The notes: a model not told the origin generated them from the letters alone. Counted from the stretch's first letter, positions 24,506 to 30,952 are shown. The stretch: 64,000 nucleotides of DNA from Candidatus Lustribacter sp. (GCA_965277805.1 OZ255842.1:416001-480000); one strand, 5' to 3'. Translations and numbers: made by a program.

Positions 24506-25662
24506 GATCGATTCGCGCCCTGACGCTGCTCGCCGCCGTTTCGCTGCTGGGCGCTTCCCCGGCTAGCGGAACGCCGATCACCATCGACGTGATCCTGCCG
24601 CTGACCGGCGGACAGGCGTTCTCGGGCGCGATCCACGCGCAGACGATCGGCGTGTACGAACGCTACGTCAACGCGAACGGCGGGATCAACGGCCGCCCGG
24701 TACACTTCGACATTCACGACGACAAGTCGAGTCCGCTCGTCGACGTCCAACTGACGAACGCGATCGTCGCAAACAAGACGCCCGTGATGCTGGGCTCATC
24801 GTATCAGGCGGGGTGTCTCGCGGAGTTGCCGATCCTCGGAACGAGCACGGTCGCCTATTGTCTCTCGCCCGGCCTCAACCCGAAACAGCCGAACATGTTC
24901 TCGGCAGCCGTCTCGACGAATTACATCGTGCCGGCAATCTACAAATTCATGCGCGATCGCGGCTACAAGAAGATCGCGGTCATCACCTCGATCGACGCCA
25001 CCGGCCAGAGCCACGACGTGCTCAGCCAAGTCACGATGGACCGCCCCGACTTCAAGAACATGAGCATCGTCGACTACGAGCATTTCTCGCCGGCCGATCT
25101 GAGCGTTAGCGCCCAGATCGCGCGCATGAAGAGCGCGAATCCGCAGGGTGTCGTCGTCGTGGCCACCGGGAACGCGTTCGCCACCGTGCTGCGCAGCATG
25201 CACGATGCGGGCCTCGACATCCCCGTGATCACGAGCGCGGTCAACATGAACGAGGACGAGCTCAAGCAGTACCAGCCGTTCTTGCCCAAAGAGATCGTCT
25301 TCAATAGCACGCTCTTCTACGCGCGCCCGCAGGACCGCAAAGGCTCCGTCCGTGCCGCCGTTGATGAGTTCTACAGCGCGTATAAAACCGCCGGCATCAA
25401 CCCATCACCCGAAGCAACCTCATGGGACCCCGCCAAAATCGTCGTCGCCGCGCTAAAAGCGCTCGGACCAAATACGACCGGCGAACAAGTCGCCGCGTAC
25501 ATCGCGAACCTGCACGACTTCGCCGGCTCGAGCGGCCTCTACGATTTCCGCACCGGCGACCACCACGGCCTCAGCGACGCCGACATCGTGTGGGTCAAAT
25601 ACCAACCCGACACCCCAACCAAGTACGCCCCCGTCTCCAAACCGGGCGGCGCCCCGCTCTAG
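24502..25662 (+). CDS. LivJ/LivK-type substrate-binding protein
   Basis: Signal peptide; PLTG, NANGGINGRP, DD.S.P; ATGA overlap. Confidence 0.85.
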   Translation: MRSIRALTLLAAVSLLGASPASGTPITIDVILPLTGGQAFSGAIHAQTIGVYERYVNANGGINGRPVHFDIHDDKSSPLVDVQLTNAIVANKTPVMLGSSYQAGCLAELPILGTSTVAYCLSPGLNPKQPNMFSAAVSTNYIVPAIYKFMRDRGYKKIAVITSIDATGQSHDVLSQVTMDRPDFKNMSIVDYEHFSPADLSVSAQIARMKSANPQGVVVVATGNAFATVLRSMHDAGLDIPVITSAVNMNEDELKQYQPFLPKEIVFNSTLFYARPQDRKGSVRAAVDEFYSAYKTAGINPSPEATSWDPAKIVVAALKALGPNTTGEQVAAYIANLHDFAGSSGLYDFRTGDHHGLSDADIVWVKYQPDTPTKYAPVSKPGGAPL

Positions 25663-25676
25663 TCATCGGCAGCACA

Positions 25677-26456
25677 TTGTTGCCACTTCGTCGCATCGAC
25701 CTCGACCGGCGTTCCGTTGAGAATTGGAACGAATATCCGTTCGCGGTTCCGGCGATTTCGGCGTTTACGCCAATCGACGTCCGCAGCCCGGTATTATGCT
25801 TCGTGGGAGAAAATGGGAGCGGCAAGTCGACGTTGCTCGAAGCCATCGCGCTGTCTTGCGGGTTCGGCCGGGAAGGCGGAACGAAGAACTTCAGCTTCTC
25901 GACCCAAAACGAGCAATCGACGGACGTCAACCCCGACGAGGCCGCGATCGATCGGCTGGCAGACGCGCTAGCCTTATCGTGGCGAAAACGCCAACGCGAT
26001 GGGTTCTTTTTGCGAGCTGAGAGTTTTTATAACGTCGTATCCTACCTCAATCGAGATCCGGCCAATCTGAGAAATTACGGTTGGAAGTCGCTTCACGCTC
26101 GCTCGCACGGTGAATCATTCCTGACCCTCATGCTCGAGCGGTTCTCGCCAAACGGCTTGTTCTTGCTCGACGAGCCGGAAGCGGCGGTGTCGCCGGCCCG
26201 GCAGCTCGCGCTCCTGCGCCGAATGCACGATTTGCTGCACGCGGGTCGCGACACGCAGTTCATCGTCGCCACCCACTCCCCGATTATCTTGGCATATCCC
26301 GGTGCTCAGATTTGCGAATTCTCAAGCGCCGGCATTAAAGAAGTTTCGTATCGCGACACGGATGCGTATATCATAACGCGCCGCTTTCTCGAAAATCCCG
26401 ATCGCGGTCTCGCGGAGGTCCTTAGCGACTTAACTGATGAGGTCGATTTCGAATAG
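25677..26456 (+). CDS. ABC-like AAA ATPase (COG3910-like); TTG start inferred
   Basis: YPFAVP, GENGSGKSTLLEA, FFLRAE, SHGESF, LLDEPE, IVATHSP. Confidence 0.85.
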   Translation: MLPLRRIDLDRRSVENWNEYPFAVPAISAFTPIDVRSPVLCFVGENGSGKSTLLEAIALSCGFGREGGTKNFSFSTQNEQSTDVNPDEAAIDRLADALALSWRKRQRDGFFLRAESFYNVVSYLNRDPANLRNYGWKSLHARSHGESFLTLMLERFSPNGLFLLDEPEAAVSPARQLALLRRMHDLLHAGRDTQFIVATHSPIILAYPGAQICEFSSAGIKEVSYRDTDAYIITRRFLENPDRGLAEVLSDLTDEVDFE

Positions 26457-26485
26457 TGACGCGGAGGCCACAATTGCTGGAGTCA

Positions 26486-26980
26486 TTAGTGTATAAAGCG
26501 GACGATCGTGTCGCGCCGCGCCGGGCCGGTACGCAGCCATGGGAGATCTTTGCCGATCGCAATCAGCGCTTGGGCGAAGCCCGGGAGATCTGCTAGCCCG
26601 ACGTCGTTGAACGTTTTCACCTGATCGCCGCAGCGCACACGCACAAGGACCCTCGGAGCGGTCATGTGGAGGCTCGATGCAGCCGGTATGATGAGCGGAA
26701 TACCGCTGCGTTCGCATAGCTTCGCGTGCTCGACTTCAGCCTCGACCGCGACGAAGTCGGCCTTTGCCACGTAGTGGCCGTCGTATCCCCGCAGCCGGCC
26801 GTCGTACGCGGCGCCCCCGTCACGGGTGAACCTGAGCGTATAGCCCGGGGAATTCGCGCCGATCACCATTCGAGCGGTCGTGACCACCACATCGTCTGCC
26901 TGCGGCACCGTAGCCGTAGCGGGAGCTGCGATCAGGGCGAATGCGATGACCAGCGCGGAAGCCAAGCGAGCACTGTGCAT
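26486..26980 (-). CDS. Hypothetical secreted protein
   Basis: Signal peptide (ALVIAFALIAAPATA); two Cys; TATTAT 7 nt upstream of ATG. Confidence 0.6.
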   Translation of the reverse strand: MHSARLASALVIAFALIAAPATATVPQADDVVVTTARMVIGANSPGYTLRFTRDGGAAYDGRLRGYDGHYVAKADFVAVEAEVEHAKLCERSGIPLIIPAASSLHMTAPRVLVRVRCGDQVKTFNDVGLADLPGFAQALIAIGKDLPWLRTGPARRDTIVRFIH

Positions 26981-27072
26981 GGCCAGGATAATATCATGCC
27001 GCCTCAGGCACTTCATAAAAATTCGATGAGACCGCTGCCGGAGGCGGCTGATTTTCTGCCGGGGGCCTCGCT

Positions 27073-27279
27073 CTAGCCCTTGGTCGCCGGCACCATCGTT
27101 TTGCACTTGGTGAATTTGCCCTTGGCATCGCGGCAGCGCTTCGGCGCCGGCGTGACGACGGCGGTCGGGCACTTGATGAATTTGCCCTTCGCATCGCGGC
27201 ACGTCTTGGCCGAAGCGATCCCCGAGCACAGGGTTACCGCGAAAAGAAACCCGAGCACCGACGTAAGTAAACGCGCCAT
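27073..27279 (-). CDS. 68-aa secreted basic peptide with a duplicated CRDAKGKFxKC repeat
   Basis: GGAGG SD; signal peptide ending ASA; repeat visible in both DNA and protein. Confidence 0.8.
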   Translation of the reverse strand: MARLLTSVLGFLFAVTLCSGIASAKTCRDAKGKFIKCPTAVVTPAPKRCRDAKGKFTKCKTMVPATKG

Positions 27280-27456
27280 ACAAGACCTCCATCGAAAAAA
27301 AACGTGGGAGCGAGCGCTTCTCCGGTCGGCTTTAGCTTGCCTAGCGGATGCCGAACGCGGCCGCGAAGGATTGCGTGAGGTCGCCGGATGCGCGTGTAAC
27401 GCGAATGTAATTTTGCTGAGCCGCGGCTGTAAGGCGCAATTCGCTACGGTCGTAGC

Positions 27457-27861
27457 ATGAAAAACATCACAACGTCCACCCACCTCGCCGCAGCCGCCCT
27501 CATCGCCGGCTCCGCCCTGCTAGCAACGAGCGCGCCGGCCGACGCTCAGACTCCTGGGGTCCCATCCGGCGTGGCCTGCTCCGCGCAAAACAGGAACGCC
27601 CAACCGACGTATCTCGAAACACCCGAATGGCCGGCAGTCGCTCAGTTAATGAATCTTACCGGTACGACGTACGTGCGCGTGCAGATCGACCCAACCGGCT
27701 CACCCTCGCAACCAGAGGTTGCGCGAACGTCCGGCGCGGGAGTACTCGACCGGGCAGCGATCGATGCGGTCTTGAAGAGCACCTTTAGGCCGGAAGTCGA
27801 CGATTGCGTTCCCGTCAGCGGCAAGTACATAATCATCGTAGACTTTCCGTCGACCCAATGA
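27457..27861 (+). CDS. Secreted TonB C-terminal domain protein
   Basis: Signal peptide ending ADA; PEWP, GTTYVRVQID..G, SGAGVLDRAAIDAV, F.P. Confidence 0.75.
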   Translation: MKNITTSTHLAAAALIAGSALLATSAPADAQTPGVPSGVACSAQNRNAQPTYLETPEWPAVAQLMNLTGTTYVRVQIDPTGSPSQPEVARTSGAGVLDRAAIDAVLKSTFRPEVDDCVPVSGKYIIIVDFPSTQ

Positions 27862-27942
27862 GCGCTCGACAGTATACCGAGCAATCAATGGGATGCCCGT
27901 CGTTGTTAAAACATAAGCCGACGCTCGCGAGAACTATTTAGC

Positions 27943-30450
27943 ATGCATGTCTGGCCGCGCGCTCGAGTCAGGTTCGTTACGCTCGTGATCGCGTTGACGG
28001 TCGTTGCGATCGCCATCAACGTTCCGGGCTTCGTCATGCACGCACGGCACGTCTATGGAATCAACGGAATAGTTCTGAGCGGTAATCGGGTCGTCGGCCT
28101 CTTGAAGCGCGGCGGAGCGCCGAACCAATTCAGGGTCGGGGACGTCGTCCTGCTGGACCAGGTGCCGATCGGCGATCGCTATGAAATGGGCCAGTTCTCG
28201 CGCCTGGGTCCAATCGCGAAGACGGTACGCATACCGGTGTTGAGAAACGGCAGGCCGGTAACCGTTCTTGAAAACTTCGTCTATGAACCGCGGCTCCTTG
28301 GCGATGCGCCCCTTGACGTTACGATCGACCTGATCGAGAAAACGTCCATTCTGTTGCTGGCATTGGTGGGCGCCGCACTCCTGCTGTTGTGCCCGTCACC
28401 CGTTTCGTGGACGTTTTTCTTCTACACCGCCGGCCTAGCCGTCTGGGACGGGCCGATGTTCTGGACGTTTCTGCCGGCGATTCCGTACATGATCGTCAGC
28501 TGGGTCGCCATCATCTACGCGTCCCTTGCGCCGATCATGTTCGCCCTCTTCGCACTGCGCCTGACAGATATCCTCAAGCCGGCCGTGCGCCTCCTGGCAG
28601 AGCGTATCGTCGTCGTGGCCGGGCTCGCATACCTGATCTTTCCAGCGATCGAAACGGTGCTGGTCTTTACGAAGCCGGTCGGCGAATTCTACTATACCGT
28701 TTCATTTGCGTTTGTAATTGCGCTGCTGGCCGGTGCCACAGCAGTCTTTATCGTGGCGGCGTTTCGCACCGCACGCACCGGCACAGGCGTGCCCGTAGCA
28801 GCATCGCTCTGCTTCGCCGGCGCGGGCCTGACGCTACTCCTGCACCTCTTCACGGGACTTTTTCTCAACTTCGATAGTGCGCTGCTCAATACGATGCTGC
28901 CGGTATTCGAGGCATCGTTGTACTTCCCACTCTCACTAGCGGGAATATTCATTATCGTCCGTTCCCGAACGATCGACATCAAGCTCACGATTTCGCGAAC
29001 CGCAGCGTTTGCATTTCTCAGCTACGCGGTCATCGCAGTCATTGTCGCGGCGAACTGGACATTTGCTCGGCACCTCGCCGACTATTCGTTCTTGATCCCG
29101 CTGCAGCTCATTTTTGCCGTGTGGCTCGGTTACCGGTTGAGCGGCTTGGGGGACTTGTCGCGTACGTTCGCGCTGGCAACATCGGAAGCGACCGCGGCAC
29201 GTTTAAGCGGTGACCTCACCGCCGAGCAGCAGCTTCTCACCAAAGGATTAGCCGCGGCCGAACTCACTCGCAAGGCAACTCTCGTCGCGGAAGTGCATGC
29301 TCGCATGGCCTTCAGCGCTTGGCTCGACGGCGACGAGAACCGGCGCGATACCCATCTGCAGGCGCTTGAAGCGGCAATCGGCGAGACTCGCTCCCGCGGA
29401 TTGCGCTTCTACTTGGCTGCGGCACGCAACCAACTGGATGAGATCGAACCATCCGATTCAGATCTGGCGGAATGGATTGCCCGCGGTTACCTCATCGCAA
29501 GTGCCAAAGCGAAGGACGCCGCCGAGTCCTTGCTGCTGGCACGCGAAGCGAAGCATGCTGCAGAACAAAGCGGTCAGCATTTCTTGACGGCTCTCGCACT
29601 CATCGCCAACGCCGAACTAAATCCCTCGGCGAGCGTCGAAAAGATGCGCGAACGCGCAGAAGAACTCGCGCGCGAGTTGGCATCCGAACCATTCCGAAAC
29701 CTCGTCCGAGCGTACTTCGATGGATCGGACAACCTCGGCATGCTGGAACCGTTCGTCCGCAGGTTCAAACCATCGGTCCACGCGCCGCCTGTGCTCGAAG
29801 TAGCATTTTCTCGCGCGGAGGTTCGCGTCTCGGACGTACCAGTCGCGTTACGCGAAGCGGAGCGCGCTCTGCTGTTCGCGATCGCGTACCGGCCCGGGCC
29901 GGTTTCGAGCGACGCACTCGCCGATGAGCTTTGGCCGGACCGGGACGGCGACGTAGCGAAAAATGCACTGCGCGTGTGCATGCACCGCCTACGGCGTGCC
30001 CTCGGGCCGGAAGAATGTGTTTTGCGCAGGGATAACGGATACGCGTTGCGCACCGACGCGTCCGTCGATCTTCATGAGATGCCGAAAGTACAGCGTTCCA
30101 TCACCTTCCCCCTAACACCGAGCCAGCGATCCCGCATGGCTGCCGTATTCGAAACGCTCCAAGCAACGGAAGATCTTCGTGCTGCGGCAGGCAGCTGGTT
30201 TTCCCGCTACGCCTCCGACATTCTGACACGTTACAACGCCTATGCGCTCACGCTCTGCCGGGACGCTTTGCGTCGCGGTGCACCTGATGAAGCGCTCGGA
30301 TTCGTGCGGTCCGTCCTTAAAAGCGACCCGAGCGATGCCGAGGCCTGCGAGCTCCGAAATACCGCGAATGATATGATCCGGCAACGCGGCGCTTCGAGGC
30401 GCGGCGACCCGGTCACCCGACCAAGTCGAATTCGAACAATGATGCGATGA
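27943..30450 (+). CDS. Membrane protein: PDZ-like loop, multiple TM helices, helical region, C-terminal SARP-type winged helix/BTAD-like domain
   Basis: FRVGDVV...VLRNG; about 8-10 hydrophobic segments; LADELWPD...NALRVCMHRLRRALG...GYAL. Confidence 0.75.
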   Translation: MHVWPRARVRFVTLVIALTVVAIAINVPGFVMHARHVYGINGIVLSGNRVVGLLKRGGAPNQFRVGDVVLLDQVPIGDRYEMGQFSRLGPIAKTVRIPVLRNGRPVTVLENFVYEPRLLGDAPLDVTIDLIEKTSILLLALVGAALLLLCPSPVSWTFFFYTAGLAVWDGPMFWTFLPAIPYMIVSWVAIIYASLAPIMFALFALRLTDILKPAVRLLAERIVVVAGLAYLIFPAIETVLVFTKPVGEFYYTVSFAFVIALLAGATAVFIVAAFRTARTGTGVPVAASLCFAGAGLTLLLHLFTGLFLNFDSALLNTMLPVFEASLYFPLSLAGIFIIVRSRTIDIKLTISRTAAFAFLSYAVIAVIVAANWTFARHLADYSFLIPLQLIFAVWLGYRLSGLGDLSRTFALATSEATAARLSGDLTAEQQLLTKGLAAAELTRKATLVAEVHARMAFSAWLDGDENRRDTHLQALEAAIGETRSRGLRFYLAAARNQLDEIEPSDSDLAEWIARGYLIASAKAKDAAESLLLAREAKHAAEQSGQHFLTALALIANAELNPSASVEKMRERAEELARELASEPFRNLVRAYFDGSDNLGMLEPFVRRFKPSVHAPPVLEVAFSRAEVRVSDVPVALREAERALLFAIAYRPGPVSSDALADELWPDRDGDVAKNALRVCMHRLRRALGPEECVLRRDNGYALRTDASVDLHEMPKVQRSITFPLTPSQRSRMAAVFETLQATEDLRAAAGSWFSRYASDILTRYNAYALTLCRDALRRGAPDEALGFVRSVLKSDPSDAEACELRNTANDMIRQRGASRRGDPVTRPSRIRTMMR

Positions 30451-30952
30451 TGGCGGCCATTCGCGGGTCGACCGACCACAGGCGAGAGCGCGTGGCGCGC
30501 GGCCAAAGCGAGTGCGGATCGTTGACCTCGACGAACGCGCGGACGCACTCGGCGAAGTATTCATCGCACGCGCTGGCAGCATAGGGCGTAACGAATGCGG
30601 TGGCTCCCGCGAAGGCGCGGCGGATGCGCGGGTCGACCCCGCTGAGATACACGCCGCCGCCCAACGCGCAGTCGAGCGCGTGTGCGAACTCGTGCGCAAT
30701 CGTCATTGGGCTCAAGCTGCGCAGGTAGATCGTCCGTTCCTCGACCACGAACAAGCCCGCCGGTGGGATCGGCCAGCCGTCAACGCCCGCAACGATGCGT
30801 CGTAAGACCGGAGAGCGATCGCCGAAGCGTTCGCCTTCACCGAGTACGGTAATGCGGATGCCGGCGCGTTCGGCAACGGCGATCGCGCCCGGGCCGAACC
30901 GCTGGAGTACTGCCTCGACGGCGGCGGCATGCGGGGGCGCGGCTTCGATCAT
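30413..30952 (-). CDS. Zn metallopeptidase of ATLF (anthrax lethal factor catalytic)/MtfA-like fold
   Basis: HEFAHALD, YA....EYFAE. Confidence 0.75.
   Translation of the reverse strand: MIEAAPPHAAAVEAVLQRFGPGAIAVAERAGIRITVLGEGERFGDRSPVLRRIVAGVDGWPIPPAGLFVVEERTIYLRSLSPMTIAHEFAHALDCALGGGVYLSGVDPRIRRAFAGATAFVTPYAASACDEYFAECVRAFVEVNDPHSLWPRATRSRLWSVDPRMAAIIASLFEFDLVG

Follow-up and report, generated by a model that had tools for sequence, protein, structure and literature searches.

An open reading frame (ORF) of 835 amino acids (aa), found in an uncultured soil bacterium of the Eremiobacterota, is read here as a membrane-integrated one-component activator. A periplasmic PDZ domain would provide its input and a SARP-type unit at its C-terminus the output, acting on the promoter of an adjacent gene for a small exported TonB_C-domain protein; we place the probability of this reading at about 0.6. 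The gene lies in a stretch of 64,000 nucleotides from Candidatus Lustribacter sp. (the window, to which coordinates given without a locus handle refer), which corresponds to G000:C1:416001-480000 of a 5.5-Mb single-contig genome. It occupies positions 27943-30450 of the forward strand as a single uninterrupted frame in the table-11 ORF listing, exactly where a first-pass annotation, made from the sequence alone, had proposed a transmembrane regulator.

The chain can be divided, in order, into a first transmembrane (TM) helix, a periplasmic PDZ domain, nine further TM helices, a helical-repeat domain, an OmpR-type winged helix-turn-helix (wHTH) and a BTAD-like bundle. These segments are given below with the evidence for each, which includes AlphaFold2 (AF2) models and their per-residue confidence (pLDDT).

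27943..30450, forward strand: whole ORF, transmembrane one-component regulator (ORF listing; homologues of 42-95% identity over 95-98% of length)
27943..28041, forward strand: Arg-rich cytoplasmic N-terminus and TM1, residues 1-33 (hydropathy; AF2 helices 5-26 and 29-34)
28042..28308, forward strand: periplasmic PDZ domain, residues 34-122 (family profile, PDZ_6 in relatives, AF2)
28309..29142, forward strand: nine-helix membrane bundle, residues 123-400, of which TM2-TM8 resemble a seven-transmembrane (7TM) receptor (AF2, VIA-align, conservation)
29146..29760, forward strand: cytoplasmic helical-repeat (TPR-like) domain, residues 402-606 (full-length AF2, blocks mostly at pLDDT 77-93)
29818..30048, forward strand: OmpR/PhoB-type wHTH, residues 626-702 (PF00486)
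30118..30402, forward strand: BTAD-like helical bundle, residues 726-820 (AF2 helices; homology to a soluble SARP paralogue)

A SARP-like unit at the C-terminus of a membrane protein

The DNA-binding end of the protein is the most readily recognised. Trans_reg_C (PF00486) matches residues 633-700 with 31.9 bits against a cut-off of 26.2 and is the sole Pfam family found in the regulator, while NCBIfam returned only weak response-regulator DNA-binding matches. A profile of the 49-sequence family alignment (A3) matches an OmpR-family response regulator (7lz9) at the wHTH with E 1.4e-6. By BLASTP, residues 624-829 are homologous (E 2e-19, 28% identity) to a soluble 266-aa paralogue encoded in the same genome (L002:1354-2154), which itself carries both Trans_reg_C (42.9 bits) and BTAD (38.5 bits). 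PF03704, the BTAD family, is matched in the relatives P0019, P0023, P0027 and P0034, and the AfsR chain 8k60_J stands in the Foldseek list of the full-length model (probability 0.99, 221 columns, E 0.15). On these sequence and fold comparisons, namely homology to a Pfam-positive paralogue, PF03704 in relatives and the AfsR match, we consider the label 'SARP-like' justified for the wHTH and BTAD-like unit, though membership of the SARP family fails on domain order: the unit does not occupy the N-terminus of a soluble protein but residues 626-820 of 835, after ten TM helices. The first-pass proposal of a C-terminal SARP-like output is thus borne out by the PF00486 score and by the homology to the BTAD-positive paralogue. 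Its further statement that kinase and ATPase motifs are missing agrees with our scans, in which no such family was matched in the regulator (Pfam, NCBIfam).

The full-length AF2 model is confident for the helices of residues 402-606 and for the 726-820 bundle. The top rows of a Foldseek search with this model are TPR and solenoid proteins, all weak at E about 1e-2.

A word-indexed search of 5.8 billion proteins yielded seven matches among 7,999 scored candidates. Five are full-length homologues (42-95% identity, 95-98% coverage), which have a start and architecture in common with each other and with a sixth match, a 512-aa fragment; the seventh is an unrelated SARP/NB-ARC protein that aligns only with the C-terminal 27%. 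To P0001 the regulator is 95% identical over 95% of its length. Database names given to the relatives range over 'hypothetical protein', 'GAF domain', 'TPR repeat protein' and 'SARP family activator'. One homologue, L046 6710-9293 on the reverse strand, does not lie in one frame but in two, owing either to a frameshift or to faulty assembly.

A predicted direct-repeat operator accompanies the regulator

When intergenic regions were compared, the window, L004 and L005 proved to share TGTAAY heptamers at 11-bp spacing ahead of the TonB_C gene. In the window, the elements are as follows.

27395..27434, forward strand: predicted operator, a direct-repeat array of the heptamers TGTAACG (start 27395), TGTAATT (start 27406) and TGTAAGG (start 27428) at spacings of 11 and 22 bp
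27445..27450, forward strand: -10-like hexamer TACGGT, separated by 10 nt from the third heptamer and by 6 nt from the start codon of TonB_C, with a possible leaderless start
27457..27861, forward strand: exported TonB_C-domain protein, 134 aa (PF03544, 57.5 bits), 81 nt upstream of the regulator and on the same strand

Read as a whole, the site runs TGTAACG-cgaa-TGTAATT, TGTAAGG 22 bp on, 10 nt, TACGGT, 6 nt and the ATG at 27457. SARP targets are described in PMC10936776 as direct repeats 11 or 22 bp apart. The 3' repeat is close to -10, and the -35 region is covered by a side-by-side dimer. The geometry of the predicted window operator is that of a SARP operator. The first-pass notion that a one-component transmembrane regulator is linked to an exported neighbour is supported by the putative SARP-type direct-repeat operator ahead of the adjacent TonB_C gene.

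The co-occurrence of repeats and regulator was assessed on both strands of 13 loci of the wHTH class (242,820 bp), namely the window, L042-L051, L053 and the metagenome locus L055; L052 and L054 are not of this class. Exact TGTAA-N6-TGTAA stands beside the regulator in six of the 13 loci, and in eight when one mismatch is allowed; all ten hits at up to one mismatch in the 242,820 bp fall within 550 bp of a regulator. With the relaxed pattern [GTA]TAA[CTG]-N6-[GTA]TAA[CT] there are 19 hits, of which 15 are no more than 700 bp from the regulator and between them cover 13/13 loci, with four elsewhere; the same pattern gave a single hit in the 86,444 bp of 22 control loci of the GAF class (see below). 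An xAxxxT hexamer follows the last heptamer by exactly 10 nt at 9/10 tabulated sites.

The repeats vary between subfamilies. Three loci (L048, L051 and L053) share ATTAATG-ggyg-AATAATG, 10 nt and TACGTT between the regulator and a receptor gene, while L049 and L050 have GGTAATG-N4-GGTAATG upstream of an XRE-family gene. Upstream of the XRE gene in L047 and L050 there is also a second pair, of GGTAACG, about 42 bp from the GGTAATG/TGTAATG pair; this arrangement suggests that the XRE-linked subfamily may have four binding sites. In L042 (6682), L043 (10504) and L055 (3915) the regulator frame terminates at the TAA within repeat 1, so that the operator overlaps the end of the coding sequence. The recognition helix reads A[RK]NA[LF]xVC[LM]HRLR in nine of the ten GTAAY loci (in L046, AGAF replaces A[RK]NA[LF]) and ARNSLRVCL[YH]GLRK in the three WTAATG loci. 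The change from HRLR to [YH]GLR in the predicted recognition helix therefore tracks the change of repeat.

Across the 5.5-Mb genome, exact TGTAA-N6-TGTAA occurs twice and its reversed control once; at up to one mismatch there are 17 sites against 34 for the control, and GTAAY-N6-GTAAY has five against four. The window site is the only one with a third repeat and the -10 geometry, and the predicted regulon in this genome is for this reason a single promoter. The second exact site (G000:C1:3486726-3486752, L088) forms the palindrome AGTGTAA…TTACACT, lacks promoter geometry and was set aside as probably due to chance. A simple sigma-70 scan called no promoter in 26900-28200. No terminator-like site was found between the TonB_C gene and the regulator, the only hit in that region being a small hairpin that overlaps repeat 1; read-through, and with it autoregulation, is therefore plausible.

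The repeats also bear on whether the ORF is a working regulator at all. Were it a decaying or non-functional fusion, with the repeats belonging to another regulator, one could account for its substitutions at some family-conserved positions, for the frameshifted relative L046 and for the fact that neither the gene nor its membrane module was found in three other genomes of the same genus that were searched. However, the frame is intact over 835 codons, third-position GC is gene-like (0.70, similar to that of neighbouring genes) and the 95% identity to P0001 extends over 95% of the length. Moreover, the repeats follow the regulator across different neighbours in 13/13 loci and are near-absent from loci of the GAF class. 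We regard decay as extremely improbable.

Predicted targets across the family

ORFs were called and neighbours scanned with Pfam in 13 regions around the longer homologues (L042-L054). A metagenome scan added only two further loci, L055 (operator, no TonB_C) and L056 (cut off). The genes found downstream of the predicted operators are these.

TonB_C: window, L042, L043
TonB-dependent-receptor-like: L048, L051, L053
S9 peptidase: L045
GloVer-repeat lipoprotein (TIGR03803, 131.8 bits): L045
NHL/ScyE-like beta-propeller, then S8 peptidase: L044
Tat-signal protein of unknown family: L055
XRE-family regulator genes: L046, L047, L049, L050

From these assignments the family appears to control genes for envelope uptake and exoproteins, especially TonB-dependent transport. 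L042, L043, L048, L051 and L053 each have a TonB-dependent-receptor-like gene of 1,200-1,400 aa, encoding CarboxypepD_reg and Plug domains, in divergent orientation to the regulator; a CarboxypepD_reg ORF lies beside the regulator in L046, and an XRE-family gene directly upstream of it in L047, L049 and L050. The C-terminal strands of TonB-dependent receptors in this family end in …FKL or …VKI.

In the window, the neighbour begins with what looks by eye like a signal peptide, has a pair of conserved cysteines, C41 and C117, and is probably a soluble periplasmic protein consisting of TonB_C only. It adjoins the regulator on the same strand in three lineages, represented by the window and L003, by L042 (=L004) and by L043 (=L005), with the gene order reversed between lineages. 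The TonB_C hidden Markov model (HMM) had no match in the flanks of L044-L056 that were examined; it also matched L002, as well as L021 of the N-terminal-module set. The genome as a whole has ten TonB_C matches, and 25 CarboxypepD_reg matches, none of these within the window.

The pairing of TonB_C with a SARP unit is not confined to the membrane-bound regulator. At L002 (G000:C1:3097813-3101379) an exported TonB_C protein of 129 aa, 42% identical to that of the window, is divergent from the 266-aa soluble SARP, after which comes an XRE-HTH/NB-ARC STAND protein. In the intergenic region there, ATCCGTAC recurs at a spacing of 13 bp and is a candidate operator of another kind. In a genome of the same genus (L062), TonB_C and a 362-aa soluble SARP stand in tandem. 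Since TonB_C pairs with SARP units with or without the membrane module, its gene is best explained as a predicted regulated target and not as the source of a PDZ ligand.

A two-protein receptor, in which the exported TonB_C protein serves as PDZ ligand, periplasmic co-sensor or feedback partner, would agree with an adjacency kept in three lineages despite rearranged gene order and with the fact that TonB_C and PDZ both face the periplasm. Yet the paralogues that pair with soluble cytoplasmic SARPs do so without any PDZ, the position of the operator accounts for adjacency as that of regulator and target, and the C-termini of TonB_C proteins (…PSTQ, …YADP) differ between lineages and are thus not conserved. 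A co-fold of the PDZ loop (33-122) with mature TonB_C (31-134) scored 0.02 against a mark of 0.32, a result that counts neither for nor against binding. On balance we hold such a receptor to be very unlikely.

A predicted PDZ domain and a helical bundle in the membrane

In the hydropathy scan, one hydrophobic segment is N-terminal and about nine come later in the chain. An AF2 model of residues 1-420, built on alignment A3, has a pLDDT of 83.7 and a predicted TM-score (pTM) of 0.80. It places TM1 at about 5-33, a beta-rich domain at 38-111 and then nine helices (123-149, 153-176, 179-208, 213-243, 248-279, 285-307, 313-340, 346-373 and 384-419), that is, ten TM helices in total. The polytopic membrane protein of the first-pass annotation is in this way upheld by hydropathy and model alike. 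Clusters of Lys and Arg, identified by eye at the N-terminus and near 204-216, 276-281 and 339-352 (after TM4, TM6 and TM8), fit a topology with both termini inside and the loop 34-122 outside.

That this extracytoplasmic loop is PDZ-like, again as first proposed, draws its support from the family. Against all PDB sequences, the A3 profile matched solved PDZ domains over profile positions 40-125 with E from 3.5e-6 to 1e-3: a DegP-like protease (3.5e-6), the RseP homologue PA3649 (5.2e-6 and 6e-6) and RseP (1.5e-4), as well as DegS, DegQ and CtpA. PDZ_6 is matched at E<=0.1 in 15/49 members of A3, the window regulator not being among them. The beta-rich region 38-111 is modelled with 10-residue block means of pLDDT 70-95. 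Within it, a Gly-Asp pair at residues 66-67 is near-invariant (47/48 and 48/48 rows), and G39 and G42 are conserved in 37/49 and 36/49 rows, which may point to a carboxylate-loop role. At positions 61 and 62 the window protein has N and Q, where A is found in 35/48 and G in 38/48 rows. Fold searches with the N-terminal model were filled by 7TM bundles. By family-level homology, then, the loop is a predicted PDZ domain, of which the window copy is divergent.

Outside the PDZ domain the best-conserved positions are P151, R342, D345, R352 and G396. Four conserved residues (R340, R342, D345 and R352) form an R-x-R-x-x-D…R motif in the cytoplasmic loop after TM8, which is likely to be a coupling surface. 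No His or Glu is conserved to at least 60% in TM1-TM9 of the family alignment and the HExxH and LDG motifs of site-2 proteases were not found there; the sole conserved acidic TM position, E388, is Q in the window regulator. None of 49 family members matches a Pfam TM family (E<=0.1), and profile scans of the regulator and family members returned no transporter, enzyme or peptidase family. HisKA_7TM, considered as an identity for the bundle, was rejected, as a search of the whole genome with PF16927 drew no match at E<=10; the domain occurs in 10% of the members of one Atlas look-alike cluster, which we treat as a lead only.

These data also inform the question of regulated proteolysis, in which the membrane module would keep the SARP unit inactive until a signal at the PDZ set off cleavage in or after TM10, freeing a soluble helical-repeat/SARP fragment to activate the promoter. 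The soluble SARP paralogues (266 and 362 aa) that pair with TonB_C indicate that the DNA-binding unit can work untethered, and the closest relatives of the PDZ domain belong to the proteolytic cascades of RseP and DegP/DegS; cleavage-dependent activation has been proposed for the membrane regulator CadC (PMC11484849). Nevertheless, the regulator has no protease gene as a conserved neighbour: the HExxH ORF described below recurs only in L003, the S8 and S9 peptidases of L044 and L045 are preceded by the operator and have the appearance of targets, and the S41 peptidase of L053 is beyond the receptor-like gene. Nor do the TM helices contain a conserved His/Glu or Ser/His pair that would point to self-cleavage. 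Release of a fragment is accordingly judged unlikely, and a regulator that stays tethered in the membrane is preferred.

A lineage-specific membrane module

Searching residues 1-420 with phmmer against 1.84 billion representatives recovered 52 carriers of the PDZ and ten-TM module at E<=1e-3, 20 of them at <=1e-10. A Pfam scan (E<=1e-3) of 49/52, with P0001, P0003 and P0004 excluded, found Trans_reg_C in 13, BTAD in four, a GAF family in ten and a PDZ family in 11. The proteins fall into two length classes, of about 730-860 aa with the wHTH and about 560-620 aa with GAF. At E<=1e-5 the module is present in 100/401 genomes of the phylum, a tally that includes four flagged as unpublished; it occurs in 83/296 genomes of family f1, in 16/30 of f3 and in none of 74 genomes from 19 other sampled families. 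Copies are often multiple, with up to four matches per genome, and some are in tandem: three GAF-class copies lie within about 8 kb on G273:C45, as on G160:C121. In L052 a GAF-class gene stands beside a second GAF protein. As far as these searches reach, the module is lineage-specific and fused either to GAF or to a predicted SARP-like output.

Such a distribution could indicate that the membrane module is mainly an effector, transporter or scaffold, whose state is reported or controlled by the GAF and SARP domains while the PDZ recruits a periplasmic partner. Most family members (about 560-620 aa) have only GAF after the bundle and no output domain, the module is expanded in the manner just described, and the Atlas contains look-alikes without cytoplasmic domains, which are PDZ-bearing membrane proteins of 340-470 aa (scores <=0.91, leads only). 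On the other side, transporter and enzyme families went unmatched, and conservation is concentrated in the PDZ and a single cytoplasmic loop rather than along a polar TM pathway. We think a primary effector role distinctly unlikely.

Proposed mechanism

In our preferred reading, the N-terminus is cytoplasmic, TM1 exports the PDZ domain to the periplasm and the nine subsequent helices would return the chain to the cytoplasm. The trigger would be a periplasmic signal at the PDZ, most plausibly a free peptide or protein C-terminus, as for the nearest PDZ relatives. This signal would pass by way of the helical bundle and the cytoplasmic R-x-R-x-x-D loop to the helical-repeat domain, which may gate the SARP unit by analogy with AfsR, whose NOD/TPR domains are reported to be inhibitory (PMC10936776). 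Still tethered to the membrane, the regulator would bind 27395-27434 as a dimer and activate the TonB_C gene in SARP-like fashion; its own gene is probably activated too, by read-through.

Several observations weigh against this proposal. At the output end, PF03704 is unmatched in the regulator itself (E<=1 for the whole protein, E<=0.1 for residues 610-835). At the input end, Pfam detects no PDZ in the window protein, a profile of the close family (A1, seven sequences) reaches PDZ structures at E 0.75-0.96 only, and the protein departs from the family consensus at A61/G62 (N/Q), R150 (C) and E388 (Q). The full-length AF2 model, from seven sequences, is mediocre (pLDDT 64.8, pTM 0.40). For the bundle, VIA-align superimposes TM2-TM8 (model range 117-359) on the bundles of G-protein-coupled receptors (GPCR) with Z 13.5 and a root-mean-square deviation of 4.9 A over 221 residues, and Foldseek on the N-terminal model also aligns TM2-TM8 with GPCR 7TM bundles (best E 6e-3); unrelated helical bundles can, however, reach about Z 13, so the 7TM likeness is possibly generic. 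The operator pattern was found post hoc and relaxed twice (WTAATG, GGTAATG), and the loci are kin, mostly from one genus-level group, and amount to perhaps five independent subfamilies: close relatives are the window and L003, L042 and L043, and L048, L051 and L053. The -10-like hexamers are weak, those of L047, L049 and L050 (TACGTG or TATCTG) failing at T6. TonB_C adjoins only 3/13 wHTH-class loci (window, L042 and L043), and there is none beside the 45% identical regulator of L055. Finally, GAF-class paralogues are without a recognisable output domain, and the membrane module may exceed the role of a sensor.

A bolder conjecture, which we rate as distinctly improbable, is that the PDZ-capped 7TM-like bundle is an unnamed receptor module that would read free periplasmic C-termini, whether of imported peptides or of unassembled TonB-dependent receptors and other outer-membrane proteins, and would be coupled directly from the membrane to class-II (SARP-type) promoter activation, without a kinase, sigma factor or protease. 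The secreted TonB_C protein, its single output here, might then be a TonB-box decoy that throttles TonB-dependent uptake. An overexpressed periplasmic TonB fragment reportedly inhibits transport in E. coli.

Other genes around the regulator

The remaining ORFs near the regulator are as follows.

30413..30952, reverse strand: HExxH ORF, 179 aa, convergent, overlapping the 3' end of the regulator by 38 bp
27073..27282, reverse strand: micro-protein, 69 aa, with a signal-peptide-like N-terminus and two CRDAKGKFxKC repeats, no family match
26486..26980, reverse strand: exported ORF, 164 aa, signal-peptide-like N-terminus (by eye)
25422..26456 as listed, real start probably later: AAA_21/AAA_15 ATPase ORF

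Three small exported-looking ORFs and a convergent HExxH ORF, from which the first-pass annotation had built a peptide-sensing circuit with a Zn peptidase, do exist, but the identification as a peptidase did not stand, all scores being below family cut-offs. The 179-aa protein (HEFAH…DEYFAE) scores 13.2 bits with Peptidase_Mx1 and 13.3 with M90 (MtfA-like), where the cut-offs are about 26, and 16.1 with TIGR04549, a TonB-associated HExxH lipoprotein family, where it is 75; its best peptidase E is 0.06. It has no signal peptide and by its N-terminus (judged by eye) is cytoplasmic. With such weak peptidase similarity, and recurring only in L003, it is not retained as part of a peptide circuit.

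Conservation of the neighbours holds in part: TonB_C is conserved in three lineages, but the HExxH protein, the 164-aa ORF and the micro-protein are not, a phmmer search of the ORFs called in L042-L054 having found no homologue of any of them. Only in the 95%-identical relative L003 do the HExxH protein and the micro-protein recur. The micro-protein gene, also conserved there, is divergent from the TonB_C gene and shares with it the operator-bearing intergenic region. The 164-aa ORF drops out as a circuit member because it sits in a strain-specific insertion/deletion: 25663-27071 of the window, which holds this ORF and the AbiEii/OLD-like ATPase ORF, is replaced by 125 bp in L003. GC content falls to about 0.60 across 26-30 kb of the window.

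Comparison with known systems

An operator that can be read from sequence in 13/13 loci, together with a predicted regulon of one promoter, makes for a small and directly testable system. The regulator may show how a PDZ signal crosses the membrane without proteolysis, and how Eremiobacterota, for which we know of almost no experimental genetics, control TonB-dependent uptake and exoprotein genes. Beyond this one protein, the fusion of the module to GAF, seen in about a quarter of the phylum genomes searched, points to a wider, unnamed signalling family. What is new here is the sensor module of PDZ and ten TM helices, the predicted GTAAY-type operator and the predicted TonB_C target; we found no description of such a membrane PDZ/SARP architecture in the full-text literature, a search in which subscription journals were not covered.

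Each part of the proposed system has a known counterpart from which it departs. The neighbour shares with TonB its TonB_C domain (57.5 bits), but has only 134 aa, with a signal-peptide-like N-terminus in place of the canonical TM anchor and Pro-rich spacer. By profile, the PDZ is closest to those of DegP-like proteins, DegS, DegQ, RseP and PA3649, and is membrane-anchored beside TM segments as in DegS and RseP of the sigma-E pathway; the regulator, however, has no protease domain and no conserved HExxH or LDG, and its output would be direct DNA binding instead of anti-sigma cleavage. With the bacterial 7TM receptors (HisKA_7TM, 7TMR-DISM) and GPCR, the bundle shares an N-out/C-in orientation and an ectodomain in front, but two extra helices follow the seven, one precedes the PDZ, and PF16927 is unmatched.

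SARPs are familiar as soluble proteins that activate antibiotic clusters in actinomycetes. As in AfsR, ActII-ORF4, DnrI and EmbR-like members, a wHTH (PF00486) is followed in the regulator by a BTAD-like bundle, and a TPR-like domain is attached as in 'large' SARPs. The unit is nonetheless C-terminal and not N-terminal, and is carried on a ten-TM module that includes a periplasmic PDZ; the unit comes after the helical-repeat domain, there is no NOD/ATPase, and the host belongs to the Eremiobacterota and not to the actinomycetes. The predicted operator likewise has direct repeats at 11/22 bp near -10, as described in PMC10936776.

To our knowledge, almost all transmembrane transcription regulators described have the ToxR/CadC layout. 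There, the wHTH is N-terminal and cytoplasmic and is joined by one TM segment to a C-terminal periplasmic sensor. Like ToxR, CadC and TcpP, the regulator would unite an extracytoplasmic sensor and an OmpR-type wHTH in one polypeptide, but its order is inverted, with ten TM helices, a predicted PDZ sensor and a BTAD-like bundle. The regulator is thus SARP-like at its DNA end and ToxR/CadC-like in its overall logic, and departs from the defining layout of both.

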